A DNA stretch of 46,029 bases, from positions 1 through 46,029 of the forward strand of contig JBIIOU010000003.1 of the NCBI GenBank assembly GCA_044336815.1, read 5' to 3'. Under the pieces are notes generated by a model. That model did no database searches and was not told the DNA's origin. It saw nothing but the letters and a program-made list of their open reading frames with translations. Every line of letters begins with the position of its first letter. Position 1 is the stretch's first letter. This document shows, one piece after another, positions 2,843-38,236 of this stretch. The position numbers and the translations under genes were made by a program. Source of the stretch: Candidatus Nanopelagicales bacterium. Its GTDB lineage: Bacteria > Actinomycetota > Actinomycetes > S36-B12.

Positions 2843-2973
2843 TTACCCACCGTCTTTCCACGTTCGACATATTCACTGGTTTTACAAGATCCGAATACCG
2901 AGTACCGAAGCAATACAACAGCAGCATAACCGCCCTGGCACAAAATTTCACCCATTTTATGGAGGCAAACACA

Positions 2974-4607: not shown

Positions 4608-4614
4608 AAAACCC

Positions 4615-4643
4615 TTGCGCCTGGGTCCGCTCACCCCTATAGT
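4615..4643 (+). promoter_or_regulatory. Sigma70-type promoter for the LLM-LLM-ligase genes
   Basis: TTGCGC (4615-4620), a 17-nt spacer, then TATAGT (4638-4643), about 40 nt before the ATG at 4686. Confidence 0.55.
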
Positions 4644-4685
4644 TCTGAGGAACATACCTACCGTCGTAAGGAATGCGAGTCTCAC

Positions 4686-5732: not shown

Positions 5733-5758
5733 CACACCCGCTAGGCGAAGGAGACAAC

Positions 5759-8157: not shown

Positions 8158-8338
8158 GTAAAGCGTGTGCAATTTATGCATGGCCTATCCGCCTGAGTTC
8201 CTCTGAGGGCGCGGAATTTTCGGCGTCACATTTTGGTAACTGTTGCTCCGAAATGTTGGCTATTACGCGCGGTATTTCCTATTGTGATGCCATCACTCCC
8301 CAATTGGTCGCGTCATCCAGCAGCGAGAAGAGGATTGC

Positions 8339-9865
8339 GTGAACGTTCTTGAAGTTTCCGGGCTCCACAAATATTACGGTGACTCGGTAGCCCTTGATAA
8401 TGCTGGTATCAGCGTCGGGGCCGGGGTGATTCACGCCATTGTTGGTGAAAACGGTGCGGGTAAATCCACCATGGTGAAAGTTCTTTCCGGCATGGTCACG
8501 CCAGATTCTGGTGAGGTAAAAATTGATGGCAGCGTGCTCGAGCTGGGTGTGCCAAAAGCATCAAGGAGCGCGGGGGTCTTCACCGCGTTCCAAGAGCTAT
8601 CACTGCTACCGAACCTGACGGTTGCCGAAAACTTGCTTATCGCCGAACTCCCAACACGCGCGGGAGTTGTTAGCCGTCGCGCGGTTCAAGGGCAGGCAGC
8701 AAAAATTTTGAAAGAGTGGGGGGTTAATGACCTTGACCCTGGGCTCATGGTCGGTCAACTACCACTGAGTGCCAAGCAGCGACTCGAATTAGTTCGAACA
8801 CTTTCACATAACCCCAAAATCCTTATTTTAGACGAGCCAACCGCAGCGCTACCCGATACTGATTGGCTGTTCCGACATGTCCGCGCGGCCCGCGATAGGG
8901 GCGCGTGTGTTTTGTATATCTCACACAAGCTAGCCGAAATCGGCCAACTGTGTGAAAGCGGCACCATCATGCGAAACGGAAAAATCGTAGGAGATTTTAA
9001 TCCCACAAACTTTAGCCACGATGAAATCATTTCATCAATGATCGGGCGATCGATCAGCATGGCATTCCCACCAAGGGTCAGCGCTATTCCCGCCGATGCC
9101 CCAATACTTCTGAAAGCGATTGATTTCGAGGTTGGCAACCGGGTGCGAGGTGTCGATCTACAAGTCCGCGAGGGTGAAATTGTCGGTGTTGCCGGCCTCG
9201 AAGGCCAAGGGCAGCGCGAACTCTTCTACGGCCTAGCAGGTGCCTCGCCGGTAACAGGTGGCGTTGTTGAGGTAGCGGGAACTGCGACAAAAGTCTCCAA
9301 TCCGCGCAAAGCCCTGAAGGCGGGTCCTGGTATCGCACTTGTCCCTGAAGAGCGAAAGCGTGAGGGGATTTTTGCCGACCTAACCTCGGTCACGAATATC
9401 TCTGTGCCTGCCTTGAAGAAACTATCCTTTGCAGGAATCATTCGTCGCGGCCCTGAGCGCGAAATGGCCTTGGAGGCCGGGCGTGATGCCCATATGCCAG
9501 AGGAGTACTTAGGTCGTGATGTCGGGCGGCTGTCGGGCGGAAATCAGCAAAAGTCAGTGCTGGCGCGCACAAACTTGACCGGCGCCAAGATTTTGCTGAT
9601 GTTTGACCCGACAAGAGGTATCGACCCATCGGCAAAGCTTGAGGTTTACAGCACGCTCCGTACGTCGGCGGCAAATGGCGCGGCAGTTTTGTTTTACTCA
9701 ACAGAGATCCCGGAGTTAGTCGGGCTTTGTGATCGGGTGATCGTTATGTACCACGGGAGAGCCGTTGCCGAGTTCGAAGGTGAACGAATTACTGAAGACG
9801 CAATCATGCAAGCCGCCGTGGGTCACGCCTCTTCGGCAACTGCTGCTCAAGGGGATAAGTCATGA
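8339..9865 (+). CDS. Sugar-type (CUT2) ABC transporter ATP-binding protein
   Basis: GENGAGKST, LILDEPT and a second domain with LSGGNQQK. Tandem ABC domains. Confidence 0.95.
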   Translation: MNVLEVSGLHKYYGDSVALDNAGISVGAGVIHAIVGENGAGKSTMVKVLSGMVTPDSGEVKIDGSVLELGVPKASRSAGVFTAFQELSLLPNLTVAENLLIAELPTRAGVVSRRAVQGQAAKILKEWGVNDLDPGLMVGQLPLSAKQRLELVRTLSHNPKILILDEPTAALPDTDWLFRHVRAARDRGACVLYISHKLAEIGQLCESGTIMRNGKIVGDFNPTNFSHDEIISSMIGRSISMAFPPRVSAIPADAPILLKAIDFEVGNRVRGVDLQVREGEIVGVAGLEGQGQRELFYGLAGASPVTGGVVEVAGTATKVSNPRKALKAGPGIALVPEERKREGIFADLTSVTNISVPALKKLSFAGIIRRGPEREMALEAGRDAHMPEEYLGRDVGRLSGGNQQKSVLARTNLTGAKILLMFDPTRGIDPSAKLEVYSTLRTSAANGAAVLFYSTEIPELVGLCDRVIVMYHGRAVAEFEGERITEDAIMQAAVGHASSATAAQGDKS

Positions 9866-10884
9866 ATACTAATCCCGGCCGAATCCGGCAGATTCTGACA
9901 GACGGCACCGGGCGTGCGGTTTTCTTCTGGATCATTTTGATGGCGATCTGGTTATCGCTCCAAAGCCGTCAGGGCATGGGCCTAGATTTAGGGCAGATTC
10001 AGTCATATCTGGTGTTGTCTCTGCCACTAATCGTCGCGGCGATTGGGGTTACCTTAGTAATTATCATGGGGCAGTTCGACCTCTCGGCTGCCGGTGTTAT
10101 CGGGATAGTTAACGTGACTATCGCCTCAACATTGAGTAGTTGGAACCCACTTCTGGTAGTGGTGTTAATGATGGCACTGGGCGGTTTTATCGGCTTGGTG
10201 AACGGACTTTTCGTTATCCTTGGCAAGCTGCCAGCGATTGCGGTAACCCTAGCTACCCTCATCATTTTGCAGGGGCTAGCTGTTGTCATCCTCCCGCAGC
10301 CAAGTGGGAAAATACCGCCGTTCCTTGTTGACGGTGTGCGAGTGCCATTTGTCGCGCTCGGCATCATCGTCGTAGTTATCATCGTTTGGATGCTCTTCAA
10401 GCGGTCTCGTTTGGGCCTCTACATGTTTGCCATCGGAGCTGACCCTGAGGCGCTGCATCTTTCGGGTCTGCCGGTCAAGAAGATCCAACTTAAGATCTTC
10501 GTACTTGCCGGGGCGCTGTACGGCCTTGCGGGTGTCTTTATGTCAGCTTCGCTTGGATCAGGTGACGGCAATGCAGCGGACAGTTTCCTCCTAACGACTT
10601 TCGCGGCCGCAGCAATTGGAGGTACCGCCTTTGTCGGCGGGCGAGGTTCAGCAGTTGGCACCCTTTTCGGAGCGTTAACTCTTCTCGCGATTCCCAAAGT
10701 GCTCTTTGTCATCGGCGTCAGCGACTGGACCCAGAAAGTTGCTTTCGGCCTATTGGTCCTGCTAGCGGTTGTTGCTGGAGCATTCTCATCCCTGAGAAAA
10801 GACCGCGAGCTCTTACTGGTAGCCCCGTACTCAACTCCCACCGAGGGTGAATCTAGCACCGCGACCAAGGGAGGCAGCGCATGA
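9862..10884 (+). CDS. Sugar-type ABC transporter permease
   Basis: Multi-TM protein with GQFDLS, AAAAIGGT and GGRGS motifs of the RbsC family. Confidence 0.93.
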   Translation: MNTNPGRIRQILTDGTGRAVFFWIILMAIWLSLQSRQGMGLDLGQIQSYLVLSLPLIVAAIGVTLVIIMGQFDLSAAGVIGIVNVTIASTLSSWNPLLVVVLMMALGGFIGLVNGLFVILGKLPAIAVTLATLIILQGLAVVILPQPSGKIPPFLVDGVRVPFVALGIIVVVIIVWMLFKRSRLGLYMFAIGADPEALHLSGLPVKKIQLKIFVLAGALYGLAGVFMSASLGSGDGNAADSFLLTTFAAAAIGGTAFVGGRGSAVGTLFGALTLLAIPKVLFVIGVSDWTQKVAFGLLVLLAVVAGAFSSLRKDRELLLVAPYSTPTEGESSTATKGGSA

Positions 10885-11915
10885 GCGATCAATTAGTAAT
10901 CCAAGCGCAGCAACGCCGAAGCTCAAGGATGCAAACCATCTACCGCCCACTCATCCTGGCCGCTCTTGCGCTATTGGTGCTGGTCTCCGGTCGGCTTGTC
11001 AGCGAGTCGCTTCCATCTTTGATCGCCGTTCAGACTGTGCTTACGCTCGGCATGTTCCTGTCGGTGGTTGCCTTCGGTCAGGGCTTGGTCATGCTTACCG
11101 GCGGCCTCGACCTTTCAGTCCCCGGTGTGATCGCACTCTCGGCGAGCATTGTCGCGGTGTGGGTCAGCTTCATGGACGGCAACCTTTTGGTCGGAATCCT
11201 GCTGGCGCTGGGGGTTTCACTTCTCTTCGGAATAGTCAATGGATTACTTGTATCCGTCCTGAAAGCACCGGCATTTATTGTGACCCTTGCCATGGGGGCA
11301 GTTCTCGAAGGGTTCTCACTCTTTATCACTTATGGCCGCAAGTCCCCGGAGTCACCTGAATTGCTGGTCACACTCTTCAGCGGATCCGGGAAACTTTTTG
11401 GTATTGCTATTCCGGCCCTGCTTTTCTTCGTTGTCGGAATTATTGGTTTCATCATTCAGGCCAGGTCGCGCTTCGGACGCAATGCCTACCTGCTCGGTAG
11501 TTCATTAGAGGCATCGCGAATCGCGGGCCAGCCGGTTAATTTCATTCAGATCAGTATGTACGCGGTCAGCGGGTTCGGGTCTGGTCTGGCTGGTTTGATG
11601 CTTGTTGGTTTTTCAGGTAACGCCCAACTCAGCCTTGGTACAGAATGGCTAATGCCTTCAATCGCCGCGGTCCTCGTGGGCGGTACGGTAATTGGTAGCG
11701 GACGCGGCTTTTGGCAGAGCACCATAACTGCCGGGTTAATGCTGACCGCTATCACCATCGTGATTCAGTCGACCGGCGTCCCCCAGGGCTGGAAATCAGT
11801 TCTTTACGGAGTCGTCGTCCTGGTCGCATTACTTTCCACTAGGTCGGACATCGGACGGCGTAGAAGGAAGCAAATTTCCCAATCTCCACTCCAGGGAAAT
11901 CCACCGCAAAAGTGA
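10881..11915 (+). CDS. Sugar-type ABC transporter permease
   Basis: Multi-TM protein with GGLDLSV, PAFIVTL and SIAAVLVGGT motifs. Confidence 0.93.
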   Translation: MSDQLVIQAQQRRSSRMQTIYRPLILAALALLVLVSGRLVSESLPSLIAVQTVLTLGMFLSVVAFGQGLVMLTGGLDLSVPGVIALSASIVAVWVSFMDGNLLVGILLALGVSLLFGIVNGLLVSVLKAPAFIVTLAMGAVLEGFSLFITYGRKSPESPELLVTLFSGSGKLFGIAIPALLFFVVGIIGFIIQARSRFGRNAYLLGSSLEASRIAGQPVNFIQISMYAVSGFGSGLAGLMLVGFSGNAQLSLGTEWLMPSIAAVLVGGTVIGSGRGFWQSTITAGLMLTAITIVIQSTGVPQGWKSVLYGVVVLVALLSTRSDIGRRRRKQISQSPLQGNPPQK

Positions 11916-11932
11916 GAAACGAAAGGATCCGA

Positions 11933-13300
11933 ATGAAGAGAAATTGGAAAGTGGCGGCGCTAGCTGTTGTAGCAGCCGGCACGCTTGCACTGAGCGCCTG
12001 TGGCGGCTCAACCAGTAGCACCGCTGACGCAGGTGCTGCAAGTGCAGCAGCAACAGAGGCTGCAGCACCCGCTGCAACTGCCGCGGCATCCGAGGCTGCA
12101 GCTGACAATGGCAATCCCTGCGGTTGGGCTGCTGCTCCTCGCGCTGGTGGAGCTAAGTACGTCGTGTACATGTCTTCACTCAATATCGGTAACGCGTGGC
12201 AGGAAGAAGCCGTCAACCTTGGTTCAGCCGAGGCCCTGATGTCTCCATATAGCGACTGCGTTGAACTTCGCACAGAGCGCACCGAGCCAGATCCCGCATC
12301 TCAGATCTCGCAGATTCAGTCAATGACTGCAGCAGGCGCTGACGCGATCGTGACGTTTGCACTGTCCCCGACAGCAATTAACGCCACCTTCAAAGAAGCT
12401 TGCGATGCAGGCGTGACCGTCGTAATCTACGACGCGACCGTTACGGAGCCATGTGCATACAACGTCTCCTACATCACTGCAAAGCCAGTTGGTTCTGACA
12501 TTCCATTCATGGGATACAACGCCATGGCGGCTCTGATTGACATGCTGGGTGGCGCGCCGTCCGACATCTTCGTCGCCCACGGCGTGGCCGGCACCTCGGT
12601 CGACAACGTCCACTACCTGTCGGCACTTGCTGCCTTGGAGCAGTTGTCTCCTGACACGAATATCCTGACCGAATGGGATGGTAACTGGGATAGTGCTCAG
12701 CAGCAGAAGGAAACCACAAAGGCACTTGCATCCTTCCCAGACGTAGCCGGTATCTTCTGCGGTTACGGTGAGTCGGGCTGCGTAAAGGCCCTCAAGGCAG
12801 CTGACAAGACAATCCCAGTCACCGGTGAGACCTCGCAGTACTTCCGCGAGCAGCTTCTCGCTGGCTGGCCAGGCGTCAGCATTGGCTCACCGCCAGCACA
12901 GGGTGGCATTGCAATGAAGGTTGCACTGGGCGTACTTGAGTTCGGTCCAGATGCAGGTATCCCGCATGACATTGAGGTCCCCTTCAAGGTAGTCACGAAG
13001 GACACCGTCATGGTCTGTGAAGAAGACACCTACACCGAAGGCTGCAACGTCTTCCCAGCAGGCGTCGTCGGTGACGAGAACACGGCAGATATCTTCAACC
13101 CACTTCTGCCAGAAGCCTCACTCACCTCGGCCAAGACGGGCGTGCCACCAGCAGGTTTGGTAGCAGTTCCGTTCACGGTTGATGAGCTCAAGGCAATCGA
13201 GCAGGATCCATCACGCCGCTACATTACGCGTGAGGCCTGCCCAGAAGGCTGGGCACAGGGCAAGCTAGCTGAGGGTCTTGACGGCTGCGTGCAGTCGTAA
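11933..13300 (+). CDS. Sugar-type ABC substrate-binding lipoprotein
   Basis: MKRNWK start after GAAAGGA, lipobox LSAC, an Ala-rich tether and a periplasmic-binding-protein-like body (GNAWQ, QISQIQSM, GADAIV). Confidence 0.9.
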   Translation: MKRNWKVAALAVVAAGTLALSACGGSTSSTADAGAASAAATEAAAPAATAAASEAAADNGNPCGWAAAPRAGGAKYVVYMSSLNIGNAWQEEAVNLGSAEALMSPYSDCVELRTERTEPDPASQISQIQSMTAAGADAIVTFALSPTAINATFKEACDAGVTVVIYDATVTEPCAYNVSYITAKPVGSDIPFMGYNAMAALIDMLGGAPSDIFVAHGVAGTSVDNVHYLSALAALEQLSPDTNILTEWDGNWDSAQQQKETTKALASFPDVAGIFCGYGESGCVKALKAADKTIPVTGETSQYFREQLLAGWPGVSIGSPPAQGGIAMKVALGVLEFGPDAGIPHDIEVPFKVVTKDTVMVCEEDTYTEGCNVFPAGVVGDENTADIFNPLLPEASLTSAKTGVPPAGLVAVPFTVDELKAIEQDPSRRYITREACPEGWAQGKLAEGLDGCVQS

Positions 13301-13324
13301 GGATTCGTAGGTATTGAGTTCGAC

Positions 13325-13360
13325 GTCCCGGCAGGCCACGCTCGCGTGGCCTGCCGGGAC
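13325..13360 (+). terminator. Strong stem-loop after the substrate-binding protein gene (terminator or mRNA-stabilising hairpin)
   Basis: Perfect 16-bp inverted repeat GTCCCGGCAGGCCACG / CGTGGCCTGCCGGGAC with a CTCG loop. No U-tract. Confidence 0.75.
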
Positions 13361-13435
13361 TACCAATTTGCGAAGGACTCTAAATAAAGTGAACCGTCGT
13401 ACGGGCACAGAGCACTCTTTTGAAGTTAACTCTCG

Positions 13436-14491
13436 ATGAGTGCATCTAACGAAGATTTCGCCGAACTAATTTCAAGAGTCGAAGCCGAGTTCGGGTTGGC
13501 TGCTGGCAGCGTCACAAGGCTTGGTGGCGAGGTCGACCTAAACCTCAAGGTTGAATGCGCTGACGGAAGCCTGTTCCTCATTAAGGCCACTGAAATTCAA
13601 GGGGATTCTGACACCACCTGGCAGGGGCGAATACTGGATCATGTCGCCCAGTGCGATTCGCGAATCCCGGTTCCTAAAATTGTGCGCACACATTCGGGCC
13701 TCTCAGAAATTTCAGTGCAATTTAATGACTCCAACCACCAAGTGCGGGTGATGACCTGGCTCGACGGCGAGGTAATTGGTAGAGCCGAAGGCGTTGATTT
13801 TGAGTTACTTGGCGAACTTGGAGCGCTAGCAGGATCGATGTTTGAATGTCTCCAGAGCGCCGATCGCACCGGGGTGCCAAAAACACATCACTGGGATGTA
13901 CGAAACCTACGCGAGGCGGTAGCTTCATGCGTAGATTTTGTTCCAGACCCGATCAATGTGGGTGCGGTCGCAACAATTCTCGAAAAGTGCGAGCCGGTTG
14001 AACCCTTGTTGGCGAAACTACCCACTGGCTTAGTACACCAAGACTTAAACGATTTCAATGTTCTTGTCGCAGAAGACGCTGAGGGCCGCCTAAAAGTATC
14101 CGGGATCATAGATTTTGGTGACACACTCGACAGCATCCGAGTGGCAGAGGTAGTGGTTGCCGGCGCCTACGCGATGCTGCGGCAGGAAGATCCAGTCGGT
14201 GCATTGGCCGCGGTCGTGGCCGGATTCCATTCGGTCGTCCCACTAACCGATCTAGAACGCTCAGTGATTTTTCCATTAGCGTCGGCTCGCCTTTGCCTAA
14301 ACGCCTGTACCTGGACAAAGCGCACCATAATTGAGCCGGGCGCCTACGGGGAATCTAGAATGAAGTACACCTGGCCAGCTGTTCAACTCGTGGCGCCACT
14401 GGACCCGGCGCAGGCACTAGTTCGAATTGAGCTTGCTTGTCAGAGTGCTGGGCGCACGAGCGACATGCCAGTGAACGGTCAGAAGCGATGA
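13436..14491 (+). CDS. APH-fold phosphotransferase, hydroxylysine kinase (AGPHD1)-like
   Basis: GGEVDLN, HHWDV, HQDLNDFNVL and GIIDFGD kinase motifs. Confidence 0.88.
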   Translation: MSASNEDFAELISRVEAEFGLAAGSVTRLGGEVDLNLKVECADGSLFLIKATEIQGDSDTTWQGRILDHVAQCDSRIPVPKIVRTHSGLSEISVQFNDSNHQVRVMTWLDGEVIGRAEGVDFELLGELGALAGSMFECLQSADRTGVPKTHHWDVRNLREAVASCVDFVPDPINVGAVATILEKCEPVEPLLAKLPTGLVHQDLNDFNVLVAEDAEGRLKVSGIIDFGDTLDSIRVAEVVVAGAYAMLRQEDPVGALAAVVAGFHSVVPLTDLERSVIFPLASARLCLNACTWTKRTIIEPGAYGESRMKYTWPAVQLVAPLDPAQALVRIELACQSAGRTSDMPVNGQKR

Positions 14492-16434
14492 GCACAGGAA
14501 GGACGCCAACGGTGTTGGGCCAAGAAGTAATGTGGCAAGAAGTAGACCTGAGCCCCTCGAGTGAACTATTTGACACGGTGGCTTGGGATATTCCAAAGGA
14601 TCTCCAAGCTGCAGTCACTGCGTCGCTGGGCGATCGCCACGGCACCCCTGGGTTCACCCAGCATTTGTCTGCATGGATGCCTCGAGCCGCCCAGCGCCGC
14701 CCAGGTGCCGCCGAACCGAGAACTGTTCAAATCGGAACCGGACTAATTGTTGCCGCAGGGCAGGCCGTTAGTGCGCCTCTCCCGGGCACGGTCGTAGGGG
14801 TCGATTCAGCGGGCGTCATCACCATCGAGCACGAAGGGTCTGCGCTGGCCGGCGCTAACGGGAAAATTTGGACCCGGTGGTTTGGGCTTGCTACTAGCCA
14901 CATTATTGGTTCGGTGCTTAAAGCCGGAGACACCGTCGGCACTGCTATTGGTTGGGATGACCAAACCTCCGGGGTTGGTCCGATCATCTTTATCCAAGCT
15001 ATCACCGACCAAGAAACCGCTCTTAGCGAAGCGCGGGTTTTCATCTCGCCAAGTGAGCGCATTGCTTGGAGTGAGAAGTGCATTGACCCCGCGCCGCTAA
15101 TGGGAATTGCTACCGAGCCCGAGCCAGAGCAAAAGCTAACCGGAGATCAAGTTCTGGCGGTGCGTGATCAGCGGCTAGCAAGATCACAGCGCGCCTACTT
15201 CAAGCGTCCACCAAACCTAGTGAGAAGTCGTGGTGTTTGGTTCTATGACGAGGACGCTCTGGGTTATCTGGATGTAATTAATAACGTCACGCATGTTGGA
15301 CACGCGGAGCCGCGCGTAGTGGCCGCGGCCACTCGGCAACTGTCGAGGCTGAACACCAACAGCAGATTTATGTTTGAAGGTATTGCCTCGTATGCCTCGC
15401 GCATTGTAGAAACATTGCCCAAGCCACTGGAGGTAGTCTTTTTCGTTTGCACTGGCAGTGAGGCAAATGATCTGGCTCTGCGAATTTCACGGCAGATTAC
15501 GGGGCGCGAGGATGTAGCCGTCATTGACGGTGCTTACCACGGCAATACGACAGCGGTAATGGGCGTGAGCCCTAATCGATATAAGGGCCCCGGCGGTCGT
15601 GGCACCCCGGCGACCACCCACGAGCTCGAAACTCCGGATAGATTTCGCGGTTCATATAGGTATGACGATCAAGATGCTGGCTTGAAATACGCTGCTGACG
15701 CGAAAGCGCTTTTCGAACGCCTAGAAGCTGAAGGTAGAGCACCGGCCGCGTTCATCGCTGAGTCTCTTATGGGCACAGCGGGGAATATTGTGTTGCCGCC
15801 TGGTTACCTGAAGGCTACCTTTGCCGCCGCGCGTGCTGTTGGTGCATTTTGTATCTCTGATGAAGTTCAGGTAGGTGTCGGCAGATTTGGCTCGCATTTT
15901 TGGGGGTTTGAAGCCCACGGAGTTGTCCCTGACATTGTCACGATGGGTAAGCCGCTCGGAAACGGGCATCCAATTGCTGCGTTAGTCACGACGCGCGAAA
16001 TCGCCGATGCGTTCGATGACGGAGTCAAGTATTTCAATACCTTCGCGGGTAACCCTGTCTCATGTGCAATTGGGACCGCTGTACTTGACGTAGTTCAAGG
16101 TGACAAGTTGCAAGAGCGGGCCCTCGAAGTGGGCAACTATCTCATTGCTGAATTAACTGCCTTACGCGAGCTGCACCCAATGATTGGTGATGTCCGCGGC
16201 CACGGGCTCTACATGGGCGTGGAGTTAGTGACTGATCCTGTCTTGCGAACCCCCGCGACCGACGAAGCCAAAGAGATTTGTGAAATTCTCAAGGACAATG
16301 GAGTTTTCAACTATCCCACCGGAAAATTCGACAACGTGCTAAAAATCAAGCCTCCCATGGTTTTTGGGAAAGAGCATGCAGATATTTTCGTATCCACACT
16401 GGGTGCCGCACTAACACAAATCGAATCCCGCTGA
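14488..16434 (+). CDS. Class III PLP enzyme, phospho-lyase (AGXT2L-like), with an N-terminal degenerate M23-like region
   Basis: [47 protein letters not shown] (PLP Lys) and LKIKPP motifs. The ATG at 14488 overlaps the kinase stop. Confidence 0.9.
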
Positions 16435-16482
16435 CATATCCCTTGATCTAATTTGTCTGCCCTAGATGAAAGTGAGCAAGCC

Positions 16483-17241
16483 GTGGCTACCCAAAAGATT
16501 GACATCAATGCTGACGCAGGTGAGAGTTTTGGCCGCTGGGTACTCGGATCAGATTCCGATGTCCTCCCTTGGGTGACAACAGTTAACATCGCATGCGGCT
16601 TTCACGCGGGGGATCCAGCCAATATGCGCAAGTCTGTGCAGTTAGCTCGGGAATTAGGGATAAATGTTGGAGCCCACCCTGGTTACCCAGACCTCTGGGG
16701 TTTTGGGCGCCGGGCGATGGCCCTAAGCGATGAGTCGGTTCTCGATTACGTTACCTACCAAACCGGGGCCCTACTGGGAATCGCCAATGCTGAGGGGGTG
16801 CGGATGACCCATATGAAACCCCATGGATCCCTTTACGGGCACATAGCAAGGTCGCCCGAATTGGCCCTGGCGCTAAGCCGCGAACTGCAAAATATTCAGC
16901 CGGGGCTCACGCTGCTGACTTCGCCATTTGCCGGTGGCAAGGCGGTTAGGGCAGCTGGCTTACCGGTGATCTTTGACGCTCCGGCCGACCTCGACTTTGA
17001 GGAAGATGGCACCCATGTAATTGAGCCAATACCCCAAGCAAAAGATCCAGTTAAGGTTGCTGATCGAGCCGTGCAGTTGGCTACCGGGAAGGTCACTTCA
17101 GTGACCGGCGTAATCATTGACATGCCAACCGAATCTATTTGCGTTCACGGCGATCGCCCAAACGCCCCTGAGGTAGCCAAGGCCGTTCATGAAAGATTAA
17201 TCGCAGAGGGCTATGTCATTTCATCAGCTTTTACCCGCTAA
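16483..17241 (+). CDS. pxpA: LamB/YcsF family protein (5-oxoprolinase subunit A-like), paralogue 1
   Basis: DINADAGESFG, NIACGFHAGDP, GAHPGYPD, HMKPHG and ICVHGD motifs. Start is uncertain (16453 or 16483). Confidence 0.88.
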   Translation: MATQKIDINADAGESFGRWVLGSDSDVLPWVTTVNIACGFHAGDPANMRKSVQLARELGINVGAHPGYPDLWGFGRRAMALSDESVLDYVTYQTGALLGIANAEGVRMTHMKPHGSLYGHIARSPELALALSRELQNIQPGLTLLTSPFAGGKAVRAAGLPVIFDAPADLDFEEDGTHVIEPIPQAKDPVKVADRAVQLATGKVTSVTGVIIDMPTESICVHGDRPNAPEVAKAVHERLIAEGYVISSAFTR

Positions 17242-29874: not shown

Positions 29875-31698
29875 GTGGTCTCACGCCGTTTTCGTTTCTT
29901 CACAATTTGGGCTGCTTCACTTTTCGCGCTGTCGGCTGGTTTTGCCTCAGCCGCCAGTGCTCCTCATGCCGAAGCGTCGATAAATCCGTGGGAGTCAATT
30001 ATCTCCTACGACGTCGTTGCTCAGGTGCAGCCAAATACCGACATGTTGATCACCGAAACAATTGTGTACGACCCTGGCACCGACGAGGTTCACCGCGGCA
30101 TCCTGCGCGATATCCCACTGCAAGATGTGCTATCTAATGGTGACATTCGCACCTACGGTGTTGAGATCGAATCAATTAGTCGTGACGGCGCTGAAGTTAT
30201 GTATGAGCAATCCGAGTCTGACTCCTTTATCAACCTGCGAATCGGTGATCCAAATATCCCGATCGAAGGTCTACATACTTTTGTGATCTCCTACCGGGTC
30301 ACCGATGCCTTGGATGTCATCGAGGCAAGTGACCTCACGGCAAACTCACCCGAAAATATTAGTGCTGGCGATATTGGGTTGTATTGGGATTTCATCGGCT
30401 CCCAATGGCCATTTCCGATTTATCGAGGCAGTGCGGCGATAACCGGGCCTACCCCGGCCTTGATAGCGAATTGCTACGCCGGCCCCCAGGGCTCAACGAG
30501 TCAGTGCGTGGTTCAAGAAAATGTTGGCCCGCAGGCTGCCGTAGTTATGGTGGCTGATCTCAGCGCAGGTGGCGGCTTGACCGGTGTTCTCGGTTGGGCT
30601 CCAACCGGGTTCACCGAATTGCCGACTCCAAATATCGTCGCTGACCCAAAAGTCGCGGAGATGGAGCGGGCCTCCTCTTTATTGCCACTGTTCCTACTGC
30701 TTGGTGCAGCTGCCCTAGTCGCGCCCATCGTGATTGCGGTAATGCGCCGGCGCACTAGTGCTGGCGTGGTACTCGGTGCGACCCCGGTCCGCTATCAGCC
30801 ACCGCAGGGCTTGCGGCCAGCACAAGTACAAGCTGGGATTGATGGCACGGTTGACACCCGCGGCTACTCGGCAACCCTGCTAGACCTGGCAGCGCGCGGT
30901 CACATCACCGTCAAGGAGCAGGCGGGTGGCCGGTTCCAAAGCGGTGGCATGGAGCTGAGCTGGACGGGCACCGGCAAAGATGAGATGGCCGATTGGGAGA
31001 CCGCCCTGCTCGCGGCGATCTTCAAGGGCTCTCCAACTGCAACCATCGGTGAGTACGACGAGATTCTTGCGGCGGCTACCACGTCACTTTCAAGTACATT
31101 GGCGGCTGACGCTGCCAAATCAGGTCGGTACAACCCTCTTGGTGATGTACCTGATCGGCCCTACAAGTTACTCGCCCTACTGGGCGGCCTCATGCTTGCC
31201 GCGGGGTTGGCGGCACTTGTTATCGCTGCCGCCTACACCAGTGGCTCGGGGCTAGCGGTCATCGGGTTGGGGCTTTTGCTCGGCGGTATTGCTGGCGCCA
31301 TCATCACTCCCCGCCAACAGACAAAAGTTTCTGCGGCATTTTTAGGGGAGGTCGAAGGGTTCAAGCGACTGCTTAATTCGGATTCGGCTGATGCCCGCCG
31401 CGATTTCGCCCAAAAAATAAACCTACCCCCGGCCGCCATCTTTGCAACCTTCTTGCCGTATGCGGTGGTACTTGGGCTCGAAGATACTTGGATGAAGAAC
31501 TTCCCTGACCTTCGCCCAGAAGAGTTGCAGAACTATGGGATCTATGTAGCAAGTATGTATGCGATGTACGGGTGGTCATCTAGCATGGAGTCTAACTTTA
31601 GTTCGGGCATGACCGAACGCTCAAGTGATTCGGGTTTCAGTGGTGGCGGCGGTTTCAGTGGTGGTGGCGGCGGCGGTGGCGGCGGCGGATCGTTCTAG
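29875..31698 (+). CDS. DUF2207-family membrane protein
   Basis: Signal peptide, ITETI..RGILRDIP, LYWDFIG, ATLLDLAARG, LPYAVVLG and a Gly-rich GGGGGGGSF tail. Typical LemA partner. Confidence 0.88.
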   Translation: MVSRRFRFFTIWAASLFALSAGFASAASAPHAEASINPWESIISYDVVAQVQPNTDMLITETIVYDPGTDEVHRGILRDIPLQDVLSNGDIRTYGVEIESISRDGAEVMYEQSESDSFINLRIGDPNIPIEGLHTFVISYRVTDALDVIEASDLTANSPENISAGDIGLYWDFIGSQWPFPIYRGSAAITGPTPALIANCYAGPQGSTSQCVVQENVGPQAAVVMVADLSAGGGLTGVLGWAPTGFTELPTPNIVADPKVAEMERASSLLPLFLLLGAAALVAPIVIAVMRRRTSAGVVLGATPVRYQPPQGLRPAQVQAGIDGTVDTRGYSATLLDLAARGHITVKEQAGGRFQSGGMELSWTGTGKDEMADWETALLAAIFKGSPTATIGEYDEILAAATTSLSSTLAADAAKSGRYNPLGDVPDRPYKLLALLGGLMLAAGLAALVIAAAYTSGSGLAVIGLGLLLGGIAGAIITPRQQTKVSAAFLGEVEGFKRLLNSDSADARRDFAQKINLPPAAIFATFLPYAVVLGLEDTWMKNFPDLRPEELQNYGIYVASMYAMYGWSSSMESNFSSGMTERSSDSGFSGGGGFSGGGGGGGGGGSF

Positions 31699-31865
31699 TC
31701 GTTAGTGCCCTCAAAGCAATTACATATGTTCCCCCCGATGAACATAGCCGAGGGGTTGAGGGAGTCGCTGTTACCGGCCACACCGGGGCGCACCGATGCA
31801 ACAACAAGTGCAAGCCGATCAGTTGGCGCTGAACTTGCGGGTGCCGCAACATTGATAATTGGCAT
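31695..31865 (-). CDS. Small peptide A, 56 aa: MPIINVAAPASSAPTDRLALVVASVRPGVAGNSDSLNPSAMFIGGNICNCFEGTND
   Basis: GGAG 6 nt before the ATG. Paralogous to peptide B, with many synonymous differences. Confidence 0.8.
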   Translation of the reverse strand: MPIINVAAPASSAPTDRLALVVASVRPGVAGNSDSLNPSAMFIGGNICNCFEGTND

Positions 31866-31978
31866 TTGATGCTCCGATCTTGTAGTCGTAAACCTATTCG
31901 TTGAGTGGTGGGCTGTTATAAATATACATCTATGTTTTTCTTGTAACAACCCAACACACAACGAAGCACGCGGGGACT

Positions 31979-32140
31979 TTACTCGTCACTACCCTCAAAG
32001 CAGATACAGGGATGGCTGTGCCAAGATGGGTTTAGGGTGCCGGCGCTACTGGCCACATCCTGCCGCAATAAAACTACGCCGAGTGCGAGCCGATCGGTTG
32101 GCGCTGAACTTGCTGGTGTCGCAATATTGACACTTGGCAT
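31979..32140 (-). CDS. Small peptide B, 53 aa: MPSVNIATPASSAPTDRLALGVVLLRQDVASSAGTLNPSWHSHPCICFEGSDE
   Basis: Manually translated (below the ORF-track cutoff). GGAG 6 nt before the ATG. Paralogue of peptide A. Confidence 0.8.
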   Translation of the reverse strand: MPSVNIATPASSAPTDRLALGVVLLRQDVASSAGTLNPSWHSHPCICFEGSDE

Positions 32141-32252
32141 TTGGTTCTCCAATCACTTGATGGGTCAATACCCGAACGGGCACCTACTTCAACGGTACGT
32201 CACAAAACGTCATTTACCTAGGTTTCTGTGAAACTTTCTGCACCAGCCCCGC

Positions 32253-32264
32253 TACCCTTGGAGT
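32253..32264 (+). promoter_or_regulatory. Leaderless-type -10 element for the DsbA/FrnE gene
   Basis: TACCCT (32253-32258) lies exactly 6 nt before the GTG start. Confidence 0.45.
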
Positions 32265-32915
32265 GTGATTATTGAGGTTTGGGCGGATGTCGTTTGCCCT
32301 TGGTGTTTTATCGGCAAGCGGCGGCTGGAACGAGCAATCGCGGTACTGCCGGAGCTACCTGAACTTGAAGTCGTTCATCGAGCATTTCAACTCGATCCCG
32401 GGGCGATTTCTGAAGGCGGGCTCACGGTCGATTTGTTGGCGAGCAAGTACGGACTGGATCCTGAGGGAGTAAGGAGCATGCTCGGGCAGGTTGACTCAGC
32501 GGGGGCAACCGAAGGCCTGACAATGCGGTTACACGAAACCCAAAGGGGCAACACTTCCTTTGCCCACCAGTTGATTTTATGGGCGCAACAGCAGGGTAGT
32601 GGACAAGAGCTCCTCGAGGGGATCTTCAGTGGCTATTTCGAAAATGCGCTCCCGATATTTACCATAGATGAACTAATGCCATTCGTGCGCGCTGCTGGTT
32701 TGGATGCCGAAGTTGCACGTGAGGTAATTGCCGCTGGCTCGTATCAAAGTGCGGTGGCGGCTGACCTCGAGATGGCGGCGCAGTTTGGTGCAACCGGGGT
32801 TCCATTCTTTGTTTTTGATCGCAGATTTGGGATTTCTGGGGCCCAGCCGTTTGAGGTATTCGTCGAGACGATAACCAAGGCGCTCGAGTCACCGCTAGAT
32901 AAGTCGAGTGTTTAG
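32265..32915 (+). CDS. DsbA-family (FrnE-like) thiol-disulfide oxidoreductase, cytoplasmic
   Basis: DVVCPWCFIGKRRL, FQLDP, GVPFFVF and SGAQP motifs. No signal peptide. Confidence 0.93.
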   Translation: MIIEVWADVVCPWCFIGKRRLERAIAVLPELPELEVVHRAFQLDPGAISEGGLTVDLLASKYGLDPEGVRSMLGQVDSAGATEGLTMRLHETQRGNTSFAHQLILWAQQQGSGQELLEGIFSGYFENALPIFTIDELMPFVRAAGLDAEVAREVIAAGSYQSAVAADLEMAAQFGATGVPFFVFDRRFGISGAQPFEVFVETITKALESPLDKSSV

Positions 32916-32923
32916 AGCCTGAG

Positions 32924-34180
32924 CTATGAAGTGCAGGCAGCGCGGGCGGCTCGTACGCGGCCAACAGTAAGGGCATTAATGCAACTGAGTTGAAGTGCCG
33001 GAGTGGTCGCCGAGGAGGATCCATCGGTTACCGCTTGGGCGACAGTGGTTGCGAGGTCCAGCCGAGTCAAACTTGCCGCCATCGTCACCAAGTCTCGCTC
33101 GGCTCCACTATTGATAGCGGTGGTTCGAAGATCTTCACGCACCGCGGCGCGCTCATCCTCAGGCAGGGCGCGCAGCCCTGACCAGATGTATACCCACTGT
33201 AAGCGCTTGGCCTGGTCAACCGCCGACCCGATTTGGCCGTAGCCGAGTGAAGAAACCAATTGGGCGGCTAGGTCAATGCGACGCTCAGCGGCCGCATCGG
33301 TGATCACCACTGGATACTCTGCCTGCAATGAGGTGGGAGGCACAAAACTTTGGCTGAGCGCGATCCAAGTTGAGCTCGGCGCCTGCGGTTCTCCACCTAG
33401 CTCACCACCAAGCTCACCACCAAGCTCACCACCGGGCCGAGTGCTTGAAGTAAGTGGAGTCTCTTCAGACCCCCCGTAGATTAAAGTCAAATGATCACTC
33501 CCCGATGGGTAAGCGATTGCCATGTTGTAGGTGTCGTTACCAGCTTGCAGGGTCCACTGCCCGGTTGCGAAGTTGTAGCGGGCCCCGCTGCTGTAACCGG
33601 CGACATTACCGACGCCGTTTGCGGCGGCTGCCGCCTCGACTGGATCCTGCACAGTTTGCAAAACAAGGCGCTGACCGGCCCAGTAGCCTCCGCCATAGCC
33701 CGGGTTTCCTGGCACTAGCGGACTGTTCGCCCCGCAAACTTCTGGAGTGCAAACTATTACACCTCCGGTGACGTTGCCATTTTCATCAACCAGTGCCCAC
33801 CCAGCATGCTCACCCGGGCATAGGCCGCGCCCGGTGACACAGCCCGGATCAGGGTTTGGCACGGGGGGGCAGCCACGGTTCCACGAACCGTAAACGGTCG
33901 GGCATACCTCACCATAAGAATTCGTCGAGGGGGTTGGTGTTGCTGACGGCGTCGCCATCAAGATCTCGTGCGGCAGCGGGGTAGTCAAGGTTGAGCTGGG
34001 ACTAGGAACTGGGGTCAGTGTCGGGGTCGGGGTCGGGGTCGGCTCTGGAACTGGCGTGCTACTAGCACTCGGACTCGGTGCGGGGGTCGGATCCGCGTCA
34101 ACACCGAAAGCGGGTACCGCCAGGGCGAAACTGCAGATCCCGATAAGGAACGAGCCGGCCAACCAACGCTTACCAGTCAT
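32924..34180 (-). CDS. Secreted hypothetical protein with a Pro/Thr linker and a Cys-rich domain
   Basis: Signal peptide ending PAFG, a PTPT/PSPS linker, six Cys in CPTVY...CTPEVCG and a GGEL repeat. Confidence 0.7.
   Translation of the reverse strand: MTGKRWLAGSFLIGICSFALAVPAFGVDADPTPAPSPSASSTPVPEPTPTPTPTLTPVPSPSSTLTTPLPHEILMATPSATPTPSTNSYGEVCPTVYGSWNRGCPPVPNPDPGCVTGRGLCPGEHAGWALVDENGNVTGGVIVCTPEVCGANSPLVPGNPGYGGGYWAGQRLVLQTVQDPVEAAAAANGVGNVAGYSSGARYNFATGQWTLQAGNDTYNMAIAYPSGSDHLTLIYGGSEETPLTSSTRPGGELGGELGGELGGEPQAPSSTWIALSQSFVPPTSLQAEYPVVITDAAAERRIDLAAQLVSSLGYGQIGSAVDQAKRLQWVYIWSGLRALPEDERAAVREDLRTTAINSGAERDLVTMAASLTRLDLATTVAQAVTDGSSSATTPALQLSCINALTVGRVRAARAACTS
33390..33433 (-). repeat. 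12-bp coding tandem repeat (GGEL x ~3.5)
   Basis: AGCTCACCACCA units on the + strand. Confidence 0.75.
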
Positions 34181-35844: not shown

Positions 35845-36456
35845 TTAACTTCCCTCACATGGCAAGGCACCTTGCTGATTGCCGATTGTGCCCTTATATG
35901 TCGGTTCAAATACCTTTTGGCTGGCTATTGGGGGTACGACATAAACTAATGGGTAGGGCCCTTTGCCGACACTTTCCGGGAAGCCCTCCATGGTCACTCG
36001 TCCGACGTTTACTTGGATTGTGACATCCCCAGATTTGGTACCGGCCCAGCAACCAGATGCTTTCGTTGAATCAAGTGCCTGCGCTCGCGTGGGCTGGGTC
36101 CCGGCGGGGACACCTTTATAATGAATGACGATGTTCTGCAGCGCATTTTGATTGACTGCCCAAGGCGCGGTGAAGTTAAAACTCATCCCCTTGGTTTTGG
36201 CCGTTGGCACAGTTGCGGTCGCAACACCGTTGACTACCGTGACGGTCTTCCCCTCGTAGGGCGCACCCGATTTACCTTTTAGCCACTGCGCGGGCTGGAT
36301 GGTGCAACCGTCGCAGCCGACGACATTGAAAGTAATAGTTGTCGTGTTGGCGGCCATGGCGGCAGGGGCCAATAAAGTCGTGGCGGCAAAAGCTGTAGAG
36401 GCTAGAGCCAGGGTTAGCAGTGGGGTGGCGGTCATGGCCGCGATTCGGGTGCGCAT
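35845..36456 (-). CDS. Secreted hypothetical protein with CDGC and two more Cys
   Basis: Signal peptide (AMA site), a beta-rich body, VVGCDGCTI, SGCWAGT and a terminal LPCEGS. Confidence 0.75.
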   Translation of the reverse strand: MRTRIAAMTATPLLTLALASTAFAATTLLAPAAMAANTTTITFNVVGCDGCTIQPAQWLKGKSGAPYEGKTVTVVNGVATATVPTAKTKGMSFNFTAPWAVNQNALQNIVIHYKGVPAGTQPTRAQALDSTKASGCWAGTKSGDVTIQVNVGRVTMEGFPESVGKGPYPLVYVVPPIASQKVFEPTYKGTIGNQQGALPCEGS

Positions 36457-36571: not shown

Positions 36572-38236
36572 TTACCTTGAGGTCATCTCGACGCCTTGAT
36601 CCTCTTCAGCCGGTTTTTTGGGACCGGTCAACTTCGACCACCATGAAGAGAGTTTGTCCTTGATCCTGCTGCCGAATCCCTTGGCTGAATCCTTAGCATC
36701 AACGGCGGTCTTGCGTGCGTTAAGTGCGGTGGTCTTCACGTCATCGACAGCATGTGAAGCTTCGGTCTTAGCTTGGTGCTTACCTGAGCTCCACAATCCT
36801 TTAAGCCAGCCGGTGATGCCGCCTTCTTTGTAGCTTTCACCGGCAACCGGGGCGGGGTCTGCTGTTTTAGCCCCGGACTTTTCCCAACCAACGCCGCCTT
36901 CACCGGTTGCTTGACCCCGTGACCTAAAACCACGATGCAAAATGCTGCCGGCTTGGGTCTGGGCGGTACCAGCGGCGCGTTCTTCCGCACTACCGCCATC
37001 AAGGTGCTTGTCGTGGGCGTCAGCCTGATCTTGTTTATTGCCACCCAGCCATTGGAAGGGTTTTGAAAGCAGTGTTCCCGCGGCTCTGGCTGCATACCCG
37101 GTGCCTTTAACCGCGGATGACGCCGTGATGCCACCCAATCCTGGAGCCACAATATGGCCGGCGGTTGCTAGGCCAGCTGTCGCTGCTTGGGTGCCGAGGC
37201 CTAAGGCGGAGACCGCTGCTGCAGTTTTCAAATTACCCTTAAGCAGGTCTTCTTCACCATCTGCGCCCGTGATTGTTTCGCCAGTTTTTTTGAGAGCTTG
37301 ACCTGGCAATGCGGCAATCTGCATGGCTTTCGTCATGCCGCTAGTTTCTGGGCGCGCCTCATTAAGCTTCTCAGACTCTTCCATTGTGCCTTCGTATGTT
37401 GCTCGATGCCCTCCATCTTGAACTGCATCGCCAAGCCTCTTTGCGGCCAGCGCCTTCACAGCCGCGGACTTAAACATGCCGGTCTTGTTTTTGCGGGCAA
37501 CCATTCGTTGCATATCTGCAGCTACGTAATCCTTGCGCGCCTCACCCGCTACGTCGGTTGGTTTTTCGCCGGAGGCTTCCTTGGCCATCCAAGCACCGGC
37601 TTGAATGCCAACGCCTAAGTGTTTGGCAACCTGGCCTGGATCAACACCCAACATGGCCTCCGAAAGGCTGGGCATGACCCCACCGCCGAGCGCTTTAGAT
37701 GCAGAGTTCACCCCGCCGATTCCGGTTGCCGAGCCGCTGACGATATTTGCGACTGTCCCGGTGATGTTGCCGGCGGTGTGGCCGCTCACTTTGTTGAAGG
37801 CATTGTCACCGCGCAGGCCGGCGCCGAAACCAGAAAGGGCATCGGTGATGCCGGATTTTTTAGGCTGTTCTTTTTCGGCTGACTGAGTTGCTGGCCCCGA
37901 GATACTGCTCGGGGGAGCTACTTTCGCGGCTTCCGGAGCAGCTGTCGCTTCAGGTTCTGGGGCCGGTTGCGCGGGAGATGCGCCGAACATCAGCGGGTCT
38001 GGATTGAGCAGCGGGTCGATATCGGTGGATTGGGACGTTATGCGTTTAGCAACCGAGGGGCGACTGGTTGCAACTTGTGGTGCTGGCGATGCAACGGCGG
38101 CGGGCTCGGTAAGTGGGCGCGAGGTACTGACTGCTGCAGCTTGGGTGGGCGCCCTCGCGGCTTCGTCCCGGGCAGCCAACCGACGGCGGTCGGCTTCTTG
38201 TTCAGCTTTCGGGTGGAGGATATGAATCATGCTCAT
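36572..38236 (-). CDS. Hypothetical Ala/Gly-rich protein, candidate CIS cargo/effector
   Basis: 554-aa ORF with AAGGAG RBS, a disordered N-terminus with EQEADR and hydrophobic Gly/Ala helices. No signal peptide. Adjacent to CIS genes. Confidence 0.7.
   Translation of the reverse strand: MSMIHILHPKAEQEADRRRLAARDEAARAPTQAAAVSTSRPLTEPAAVASPAPQVATSRPSVAKRITSQSTDIDPLLNPDPLMFGASPAQPAPEPEATAAPEAAKVAPPSSISGPATQSAEKEQPKKSGITDALSGFGAGLRGDNAFNKVSGHTAGNITGTVANIVSGSATGIGGVNSASKALGGGVMPSLSEAMLGVDPGQVAKHLGVGIQAGAWMAKEASGEKPTDVAGEARKDYVAADMQRMVARKNKTGMFKSAAVKALAAKRLGDAVQDGGHRATYEGTMEESEKLNEARPETSGMTKAMQIAALPGQALKKTGETITGADGEEDLLKGNLKTAAAVSALGLGTQAATAGLATAGHIVAPGLGGITASSAVKGTGYAARAAGTLLSKPFQWLGGNKQDQADAHDKHLDGGSAEERAAGTAQTQAGSILHRGFRSRGQATGEGGVGWEKSGAKTADPAPVAGESYKEGGITGWLKGLWSSGKHQAKTEASHAVDDVKTTALNARKTAVDAKDSAKGFGSRIKDKLSSWWSKLTGPKKPAEEDQGVEMTSR

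Follow-up and report, generated by a model that had tools for sequence, protein, structure and literature searches.

The peptide pair at 31695-32140

The stretch analysed here (the window) is 46,029 nucleotides long and constitutes contig C172 of genome G000, a Candidatus Nanopelagicales bin of 2.30 Mb in 261 contigs that is 87% complete. It carries two small genes on the minus strand, encoding peptide A (31695..31865) and peptide B (31979..32140), which are very probably precursor (E-type) peptides of a cyanobactin-type pathway for ribosomally made peptides that carry post-translational modifications (RiPPs), belonging to an unnamed family that, within a single genus of freshwater-lake Actinomycetota, has expanded to about 45 scattered genes in each genome. 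Peptide A has 56 amino acids and a TAG stop, matches the hidden Markov model (HMM) of the family described below with E = 2.4e-26, and divides into leader, core and follower as MPIINVAAPASSAPTDRLALVVASVRPGVAGNSDSLNPS, AMFIGGNICNC and FEGTND. Its leader (aa 1-39, 31749..31865) contains the family-invariant D16-R17-L18 motif and ends in LNPS, the predicted core of 11 aa with Cys as the last residue occupies 31716..31748, and the follower (31698..31715) is a predicted RSIII-like recognition sequence (RSII and RSIII being recognition sequences of cyanobactin precursors). A GGAG ribosome-binding site is located at 31872..31875, 6 nt 5' of the ATG. Peptide B has 53 amino acids and a TAA stop (family HMM E = 7.3e-25) and reads MPSVNIATPASSAPTDRLALGVVLLRQDVASSAGTLNPS, WHSHPCIC and FEGSDE, with the LNPS-ended leader (aa 1-39) at 32024..32140, the predicted 8-aa core, again with Cys last, at 32000..32023, the follower at 31982..31999 and a GGAG site 6 nt 5' of the ATG at 32147..32150, all on the minus strand. 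The orthologous core in locus L067 of another genome is WNSHPCIC.

The coordinates, stops and GGAG sites of these two open reading frames (ORFs), first reported in a first-pass annotation made from the DNA sequence, were all confirmed, and its alignment of leader residues 1-39, gapless and with 24/39 identities including PASSAPTDRLAL and LNPS, was reproduced. The same applies to its remark on synonymous codons, since nine identical leader residues and one identical tail residue (10 in total) differ in codon. At the nucleotide level A and B are 0.75 identical in the leader and 0.33 identical in the 60 nt upstream. A whole-genome search with peptide A as query recovered B at E = 2.6e-11, so that their likeness lies far beyond chance. 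Neither peptide has a Pfam or NCBIfam match at E <= 10, in keeping with the earlier failure to recognise the family. From its residues, the LNPS end of the leader looks like the PatA recognition sequence RSII.

When 31500-32400 was scanned for promoters and terminators, a single promoter-like site turned up, at 31949-31921 upstream of A, which does not exceed the level of shuffled sequence (mean 0.6). In an RNA library a single contig of 208 letters lies on 31970-32177 with 0 differences and covers B exactly, hinting weakly that B is transcribed as a short RNA, although DNA carry-over in the RNA library is possible. Summed contig depth in run X2 of the RNA library (37-574 in leader bins, about 1-21 in other covered bins) was not used as evidence, because the leader is multi-copy and shared among species, so that contig depth cannot rank genes.

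A dispersed family with conserved ends and a randomised middle

Peptide A as query gave 44 matches in the genome, none of which contains an internal stop, and the HMM built from these matches found 45 stop-to-stop family ORFs on 19 contigs, in arrays of up to 10 copies (contig C155) and with many copies at contig ends. The consensus of 36 full-length copies is MPxIDVATPVSSAPTDRLALGVGWVRPGVAGIGGTLNPS, followed by an unalignable stretch and by CFEGNEE. Parsed accordingly, these copies consist of a conserved, LNPS-ended leader of 39 aa, a hypervariable core of 8-19 aa and an acidic follower, FEGNEE. There are 35 distinct cores, Cys accounts for 18% of the core residues, and the last core residue is Cys in 34 copies, Thr in 1 and Pro in 1. 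A GGAG-type site precedes nearly every start by 6-8 nt, and most copies end in a TAG stop. The CxCFEG tail of the first-pass annotation thus holds in part: CFEG is constant, family-wide as Cys-Phe-Glu-Gly-x-(E/D)-(E/D), but the leading Cys of CxC is a residue of the variable core that many copies do not have.

Among the 31 copies whose flanks are complete, mean pairwise DNA identity reaches 0.82 in the leader (0.86, 0.87 and 0.71 at codon positions 1, 2 and 3) and 0.74-0.92 in the tail (last eight codons and stop). The core (0.27) and the flanks (0.26-0.33) are at random level, with the exception of the ribosome-binding site (0.53) and the first 24 nt 3' of the stop (about 0.44). Leader codons 2-28 have a ratio of nonsynonymous to synonymous differences (pN/pS), pooled over 630 pairs, of 0.40, and the tail has one of 0.37. 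The lower conservation of third codon positions, these ratios and the lack of internal stops bear out the earlier proposal that selection acts on the protein and not on a DNA repeat. Judged from its sequence pattern, the family is translated, and its members have a randomised middle enclosed by two conserved ends.

In the genus of G000 the precursor arrays adjoin housekeeping genes. A maturase encoded beside the arrays was considered and rejected, as ten neighbours proved to be housekeeping or unrelated genes (penicillin-binding protein, COX1, tRNA synthetase, aldolase, TetR and others). A few cores, namely GYNSGAYC, NIFHNPCG(L/V)C and GSGSHYCTC, are repeated at two loci, identical or one residue apart and behind slightly different leaders, on the contig pairs C112/C244, C155/C244 and C22/C38; such recurrence could reflect recent duplication, recombination between arrays, or strain variants that were binned together.

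The family in public sequence data

A search of public data with the family profile, a kind of check that the first-pass annotation had suggested, yielded 1352 proteins (90%-identity clusters) at E <= 1e-3 out of 1603 candidates. None of the 1352 contains a Pfam domain, and the sole name seen is 'unannotated protein [freshwater metagenome]'. Among the best 120 of them, 119 could be parsed and comprise 115 distinct cores, with Cys last in 119/119 and FEGNEE in 115. A further 66 loci of other genomes contain 79 full-length copies with 73 distinct cores (last residue Cys in 78 and Pro in 1), and 10/36 cores of G000 recur in them unchanged. By their record titles these loci come from metagenome-assembled genomes (MAGs) of freshwater-lake Actinomycetota, several of them labelled Nanopelagicales, acI or acSTL. 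Some lake MAG records (L068-L070, L073, L074 and others) are titled 'Bifidobacterium breve', which looks like mislabelling, as their content fits this freshwater genus.

When 1.84 billion representatives were searched exhaustively with the profile, 74 reached E <= 1e-3, and at least two of these (P0265 and P0270) are repeat proteins that have nothing to do with the family. Distant relatives (P0259, P0272 and P0274-P0277) contain 2-3 core cassettes, with an acidic F-x-D/E element and an (A/P)S element coming after each. The layout of P0274 is core-C, FADEAAPS, core, FADGAAPS, core, FADES, and the cores end in C, L and T.

A cyanobactin-type enzyme cluster on another contig

As the first-pass annotation had stated, no maturase is encoded in the window; the enzymes are located on a different contig of the same genome, C13. 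Of the maturase types proposed at that stage, YcaO is present, with three matches in the genome, while no SPASM radical-SAM or LanC-like domain turned up in this assembly, which is 87% complete. The genes on C13 encode, in order, a 755-aa heterocyclase, a 406-aa sulfotransferase fused to a RiPP recognition element (RRE), a 265-aa ORF, a 762-aa oxidase, a 678-aa protease, a 128-aa ORF and a 707-aa protease, beyond which lie a LuxR-type response regulator, a histidine kinase and rpoC.

The heterocyclase (168-2435) is a PatD-like fused protein with a winged-helix N-terminus and a YcaO domain (Pfam, 1.1e-88) that exceeds the NCBIfam cut-offs for TOMM_cyclo_SagD (251 vs 219) and cyclo_dehyd_2 (87 vs 37). 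The ThcOx-like oxidase (4499-6787) combines ThcOx and nitroreductase domains and scores 112.5 against the SagB cut-off of 78.4. Both proteases have the domain order Peptidase_S8, PatG_D and PatG_C and surpass the cut-off of 421 bits for TIGR03895, the NCBIfam model 'PatA/PatG family cyanobactin maturation protease'. The 707-aa protein (9413-11536) is PatA-like, with 734.5 bits and best PDB matches to PatA (4H6V, 9.5e-83) and the PatG DUF (4UVQ, 8.3e-83), and the 678-aa protein (6784-8820) is a second, G-like member of the PatA/PatG family, with 451.2 bits and about equal best PDB matches to PagA, PagG and PatG (~1e-60). In an even sample of 401 Actinomycetota genomes from 249 genera, TIGR03895 was over cut-off in only 2, G000 included. 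Some homologues are already annotated automatically as 'cyanobactin maturation PatA/PatG family protease' or 'S8 family serine peptidase [Candidatus Nanopelagicales bacterium]', so that the enzymes are visible in databases and the precursors are not.

The sulfotransferase (PF00685), fused to a PqqD-like RRE, and the 265-aa ORF that follows it occupy 2463-4473 (-) of C13 (L042). Both have counterparts of 72-80% identity in two congeners and were not found in the cluster stretches examined in two other genera, g3 and g16. The only lead on the 265-aa ORF came from a protein atlas, in which it was placed with HprK-like serine kinase clusters (score 0.93, 195 shared features), and to judge by these assignments the two proteins may add sulfate or phosphate to the peptides. 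The 128-aa ORF belongs to no known family and gave no usable match in the protein atlas, but lies between the A and G genes in 4/4 relatives examined. PatF had no match among the cluster ORFs. A predicted complex of the PatD-like enzyme with the peptide scored 0.21, compared with a mark of 0.32, and was used neither way.

The other two YcaO genes of the genome belong to a separate RiPP cluster on contig C115 (L043, about 2680-16950), which encodes a fused YcaO protein (728 aa), a YcaO-TfuA pair of the thioamide type, a nitroreductase-family protein, a Peptidase_C39 exporter of the ATP-binding cassette (ABC) type and a second ABC transporter. It also contains NHLP-type precursors at 9096-9356 (+), 9434-9703 (+) and 3748-4038 (-) of L043, with GG sites and short Cys-rich cores.

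Co-occurrence of peptides and enzymes in relatives

The distribution of peptides and enzymes was compared in G000 and 60 relatives from 33 genera. The peptide profile matched in 11/11 other species of genus g1 (5-49 matches each), in 2/2 of g3 and in 1/1 of g16, and in none of the remaining 30 genera. The 678-aa protease was found in 9/11, 2/2 and 1/1 of the same genera and in no other genus, the two g1 bins without it being 79% and 57% complete. PatD-like orthologues are present in 10/11, 1/2 and 1/1, and more distant heterocyclase homologues (34-45% identity) occur in two further genera. Co-occurrence with a maturase, which the first-pass annotation had put forward as a check, is therefore seen for PatA/PatG-type proteases, as these and the peptides share the same 3/33 genera.

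In the sister genera precursors adjoin the enzyme genes or a shared transporter neighbour. In G013 (C15) four precursors and a transporter gene lie between the heterocyclase gene and the PatA-like gene, and these precursors run from ...APS through a core ending in C to SASEDE, SASDDE, SAQDEE or SADDE. In G028 (C22) three precursors are found directly upstream of the PatA-like gene, with a core ending in C before FADDAE or FADDTE. The three precursors of G026 (C47), in which the core-C is followed by FADDAD, LADDAE or FADDGE, adjoin a transporter gene resembling the major facilitator superfamily, as in G013 and G028, with the proteases of G026 being on another contig, C95. The order A, 128-aa ORF, G, oxidase is kept in 4/4 relatives examined. 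The leader/core/follower precursor reading of the first-pass annotation is thereby supported, and co-occurrence together with adjacency in sister genera ties it to a cyanobactin-like pathway.

Proposed maturation pathway

In the pathway proposed here, the conserved leader, probably through its invariant SSAPxDRLAL stretch, would dock on the leader-binding domain of the PatD-like heterocyclase, which would turn core Cys residues, including the invariant last Cys, into thiazolines. The ThcOx-like oxidase, a flavin mononucleotide enzyme, would then oxidise the thiazolines to thiazoles. The PatA-like subtilase is predicted to cut after LNPS, and the second PatA/PatG-family subtilase between the terminal heterocyclised Cys and FEGxEE. 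Release may be hydrolytic, yielding linear peptides with a thiazole at the C-terminus, or may involve a cap-independent cyclisation. In this genus the RRE-fused sulfotransferase and the possible HprK-like kinase may add tailoring. One enzyme set would serve all precursors, giving rise to a combinatorial peptide library.

Weighing the assignment

Several observations weigh against assigning A and B to such a pathway, and they concern the gene set, the C-terminal protease and the window copies themselves. Every biochemical step is inferred. The leader has no detectable homology to known precursors (none in Pfam or NCBIfam at E <= 10; best E of 0.5 for the family profile against PDB chains), and no PatB or PatC family match was found among the C13 cluster ORFs. 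In the genus of G000 no precursor lies beside the enzyme cluster, and because of this the linkage rests on co-occurrence and on the sister genera. The genome is an 87%-complete bin of 261 contigs, for which the genus-wide pattern supports, without proving it, that peptides and enzymes come from a single organism.

The 678-aa protease lacks the capping-helix insert that defines cyanobactin macrocyclases. According to the available text of the cited sources, as for those cited below, the cap is a helix-turn-helix that binds the follower and stabilises catalytic intermediates (PMC4663559; bioRxiv 10.1101/2020.03.17.996157), and in PagGmac it comprises Asp59-Lys98 (bioRxiv 10.1101/2020.03.17.996157). 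The alignment of the 678-aa protease to PagG (4H6X) skips chain residues 67-98, and the spacing from the catalytic Asp to the His is 35, compared with 71 in nine PatG-type proteins. Among its 44 closest homologues the spacing is 35-37 in 41 (2 were unparsed and 1 misparsed), and in an alignment of 51 rows the Asp-His segment measures 36 aa in the 678-aa protease and 72 aa in 8 rows, which include Microcystis proteins. An AlphaFold model of the protease domain based on this alignment (pLDDT, the predicted local distance difference test, 84.9; a 9-sequence version with pLDDT 42.7 was discarded) places a single strand and no helix pair at the cap position, and the predicted fold has a target-normalised template-modelling score of 0.91-0.94 to PagA/PatA and 0.82-0.83 to PatG. 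The enzyme is thus a member of the cyanobactin protease family that does not carry the macrocyclase signature, and the pathway may yield linear products or cyclise them by a different route.

As for the window pair, A and B are the most divergent members in the genome, with 55-60% identity to the other 34 aligned copies, and the consensus GVAGIGGT is replaced in them by GVAGNSDS and QDVASSAG. A syntenic pair, flanked by the same DsbA-like and DUF2207 genes, exists in L067 and G006 (92% DNA identity). Compared with the copies in L067, the ratio of nonsynonymous to synonymous substitution rates (dN/dS) is 0.66 for A and 0.70 for B, calculated from only 15 and 10 changes, and 1.09 for the leader of B; moreover, the L067 copy of A carries FGG instead of FEG. 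In G009, G005, G004, G001 and G003 the search of some 1.5 kb next to the DUF2207 gene end turned up no family member, and in G005 both flanking genes are about 125 bp apart. Because the pair is present in L067 and G006 but missing in these five other congeners, it is therefore a young lineage-specific insertion or the survivor of a deletion, and it may be under relaxed constraint. These features would suit a scenario in which the window copies are decaying or relaxed paralogues that are no longer processed efficiently, within a family that is itself real. This is considered unlikely, as the frames of A and B are intact in both genomes compared and the window copies keep the GGAG spacing, DRLAL, LNPS, the terminal Cys and an acidic follower. 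Furthermore, a dN/dS from 10-15 changes is indistinguishable from moderate purifying selection, and the RNA-library contig matches B exactly.

Other explanations dispute the nature of the family as a whole. The location of many copies at contig ends is repeat-like and proteomic evidence for the peptides is nil, as would be expected if the ORFs were untranslated and the repeat were a DNA- or RNA-level element, but the drop of identity at third codon positions, the pN/pS of 0.4, the 44 matches all free of internal stops and the regular GGAG-type site within otherwise unrelated flanks leave this explanation a negligible chance. The Cys-rich cores and the DsbA-like gene, the divergent neighbour of peptide B, could fit unmodified small Cys-rich peptides with a role in metal binding, redox chemistry or signalling, in which the conserved ends would serve folding or export; a small Cys metal or redox peptide had also been offered by the first-pass annotation. 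No support was obtained for it, since only the last Cys is constant and no metal-binding spacing is conserved. In addition, the DsbA-like gene is present in G005, where the peptides are absent, a random-level core between conserved flanks is the pattern of a RiPP library, multi-cassette relatives exist, and the distribution of the family strictly parallels that of a protease and heterocyclase cluster dedicated to it, all of which makes unmodified peptides very improbable. Equally little can be said for the peptides being substrates of the TOMM (thiazole/oxazole-modified microcin) or thioamide cluster of NHLP type on C115, whose exporter would cut at a double-glycine-like GIGG site in the leader. 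The consensus leader does have GIGG about 5 residues before the core, and C115 encodes a Peptidase_C39 ABC transporter along with YcaO enzymes. However, three NHLP-type precursors already belong to this cluster, a GG is absent from the window copies and from the precursors of the sister genera, leader conservation continues past GIGG through TLNPS, and the peptides adjoin and co-occur with genes of the PatA/PatG type, so that this origin, too, is highly implausible. A precursor function of A and B in a cyanobactin-type pathway is accordingly retained as the strongly favoured reading.

Neighbouring genes in the window

The genes around A and B encode LemA, DUF2207, DsbA-like, luciferase-like and NUDIX proteins and unknowns. 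The DsbA-like gene was rejected as a functional partner, because it is also present in G005. A long run of glycines (GFSGGGGFSGGGGGGGGGGSF; 31620-31698, plus strand) closes the DUF2207 protein, whose stop codon overlaps that of peptide A on the opposite strand; owing to this repeat, 31652-31693 were left out of the read mapping. At 32924-34180 (minus strand) lies a 418-aa ORF without a Pfam family. Its N-terminus is hydrophobic, and it contains a linker rich in Pro, Thr and Ser as well as a GGELGGELGGELGGE repeat; from this composition, it may be a secreted or cell-surface protein. Two further minus-strand ORFs of 203 aa (35845-36456) and 554 aa (36572-38236) have no Pfam family at E <= 1e-3.

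Novelty and implications

A search of the literature, which covered few subscription journals and no supplements, found nothing on the family or on cyanobactin-type clusters in these organisms. The main text of a 2025 paper on Nanopelagicales, searched apart from its supplements, does not mention RiPP, biosynthetic gene, acSTL, secondary metabolism, YcaO or bacteriocin. As far as sequence comparison goes, what is new here is that machinery of the cyanobactin type occurs in organisms other than cyanobacteria, together with a leader family that is itself new, precursors dispersed and expanded in a prochlorosin-like manner and a cap-less C-terminal protease, to which RRE-guided sulfation is a possible addition.

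A full set of protease, heterocyclase and oxidase would thus be assigned to a precursor family that lacks annotation, in planktonic actinobacteria of lakes whose genomes measure about 2 Mb. If A and B are cyanobactin-type precursors, the family represents a large natural library of small thiazole-containing peptides, and the some 45 genes spent on it would add a second, independent example of combinatorial RiPP libraries on the scale of a whole genome. Why such libraries are kept by streamlined plankton becomes a testable question. For peptide engineering, interest lies in enzymes evolved for more than 1,000 natural cores, in the LNPS and FEGNEE recognition sequences, in the cap-less G-type protease and in the RRE-fused sulfotransferase.

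Comparison with known systems

The closest likeness is to the cyanobactins (pat, tru, pag and thc), which share with the system described here an A-type and a second PatA/PatG-family protease, a PatD-type YcaO heterocyclase and an oxidase of ThcOx type that stands alone and is optional among cyanobactin pathways. The precursors are alike too, as judged from layout and motifs only, in having a leader, an (A/P)S cut site, a hypervariable core whose final residue is Cys, Pro or Thr, and a follower that is acidic and aromatic. Cleavage by PatA-like enzymes takes place after G(L/V)E(A/P)S and that by PatG-like enzymes before AYDG (PMC10885120), and in PagG the RSIII/follower is FAGDDAE (bioRxiv 10.1101/2020.03.17.996157). 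The sites corresponding to G(L/V)E(A/P)S and to AYDGE/FAGDDAE are LNPS (APS in g3) and FEGNEE/FADDAE in this family. PatG-type enzymes prefer substrates that end in thiazoline or thiazole, whereas a newer class is proline-specific (bioRxiv 10.1101/2020.03.17.996157). Cyanobactin E peptides contain 1-4 cores, each located between RSII and RSIII (PMC4663559), and the multi-cassette distant relatives resemble PatE in this respect, although the leader has no detectable homology to PatE. In the available text of a 2015 review, cyanobactin clusters were known from cyanobacteria only and had at most 10 precursor genes per cluster (PMC4663559). By contrast, the producers here are, by record titles, Actinomycetota, with about 45 dispersed precursor genes per genome compared with the <=10 in a cluster given there. 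Further differences are a G-type protease without capping helices, the lack of PatB, PatC and PatF matches, and the RRE-fused sulfotransferase that is added in this genus.

Curacozole, YM-216391, aurantizolicin and telomestatin are azole-rich peptides of actinobacteria that originate from ribosomal precursors and involve YcaO and ThcOx-like enzymes, but the czl, ym and aur clusters are, as far as the available text of the source goes, without the class-defining A/G proteases (PMC11575548). Unlike these cyanobactin-like RiPPs of actinomycetes, the system described here has both A/G proteases over the NCBIfam cut-off, and it differs as well from their single precursor per cluster and large, soil-type genomes. 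NHLP/Nif11-type TOMM systems have heterocyclases related to the cyanobactin D proteins and, in the available part of the source, lack PatA/G-like proteases (PMC4603692). Their precursors likewise place hypervariable cores behind conserved leaders, and C115 holds a cluster of this kind; the window peptides, however, match no NHLP model, have no double-glycine cut site and do possess a follower.

The prochlorosins of marine picocyanobacteria (ProcA/ProcM), with about 30 precursors per strain, offer a parallel in genomic organisation, with dozens of dispersed precursors, a conserved leader, a hypervariable core and presumably one enzyme set. They are described as many precursors scattered over a small genome, with these leader and core properties, that are served by one promiscuous enzyme set (PMC10783134). 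It is conceivable, though this extension is advanced tentatively, that the family is an actinobacterial counterpart of the prochlorosins, with about 20-50 dispersed precursors per 2-Mb genome and more than 1,300 public sequences processed by one cyanobactin-type set whose C-terminal protease is cap-less, the outcome being either a new macrocyclisation or a linear, thiazole-ended library, and in this genus RRE-guided sulfation or phosphorylation may be added. If this applies, selection for diversity itself would be what the random-level core shows between its selected flanks. The two systems differ in that lanthionine rings are formed in prochlorosins, while azol(in)e formation and double proteolysis are predicted here; no LanC-like domain was found in the 87%-complete G000, A and B show no Nif11 or NHLP match, and the precursors carry a C-terminal follower.

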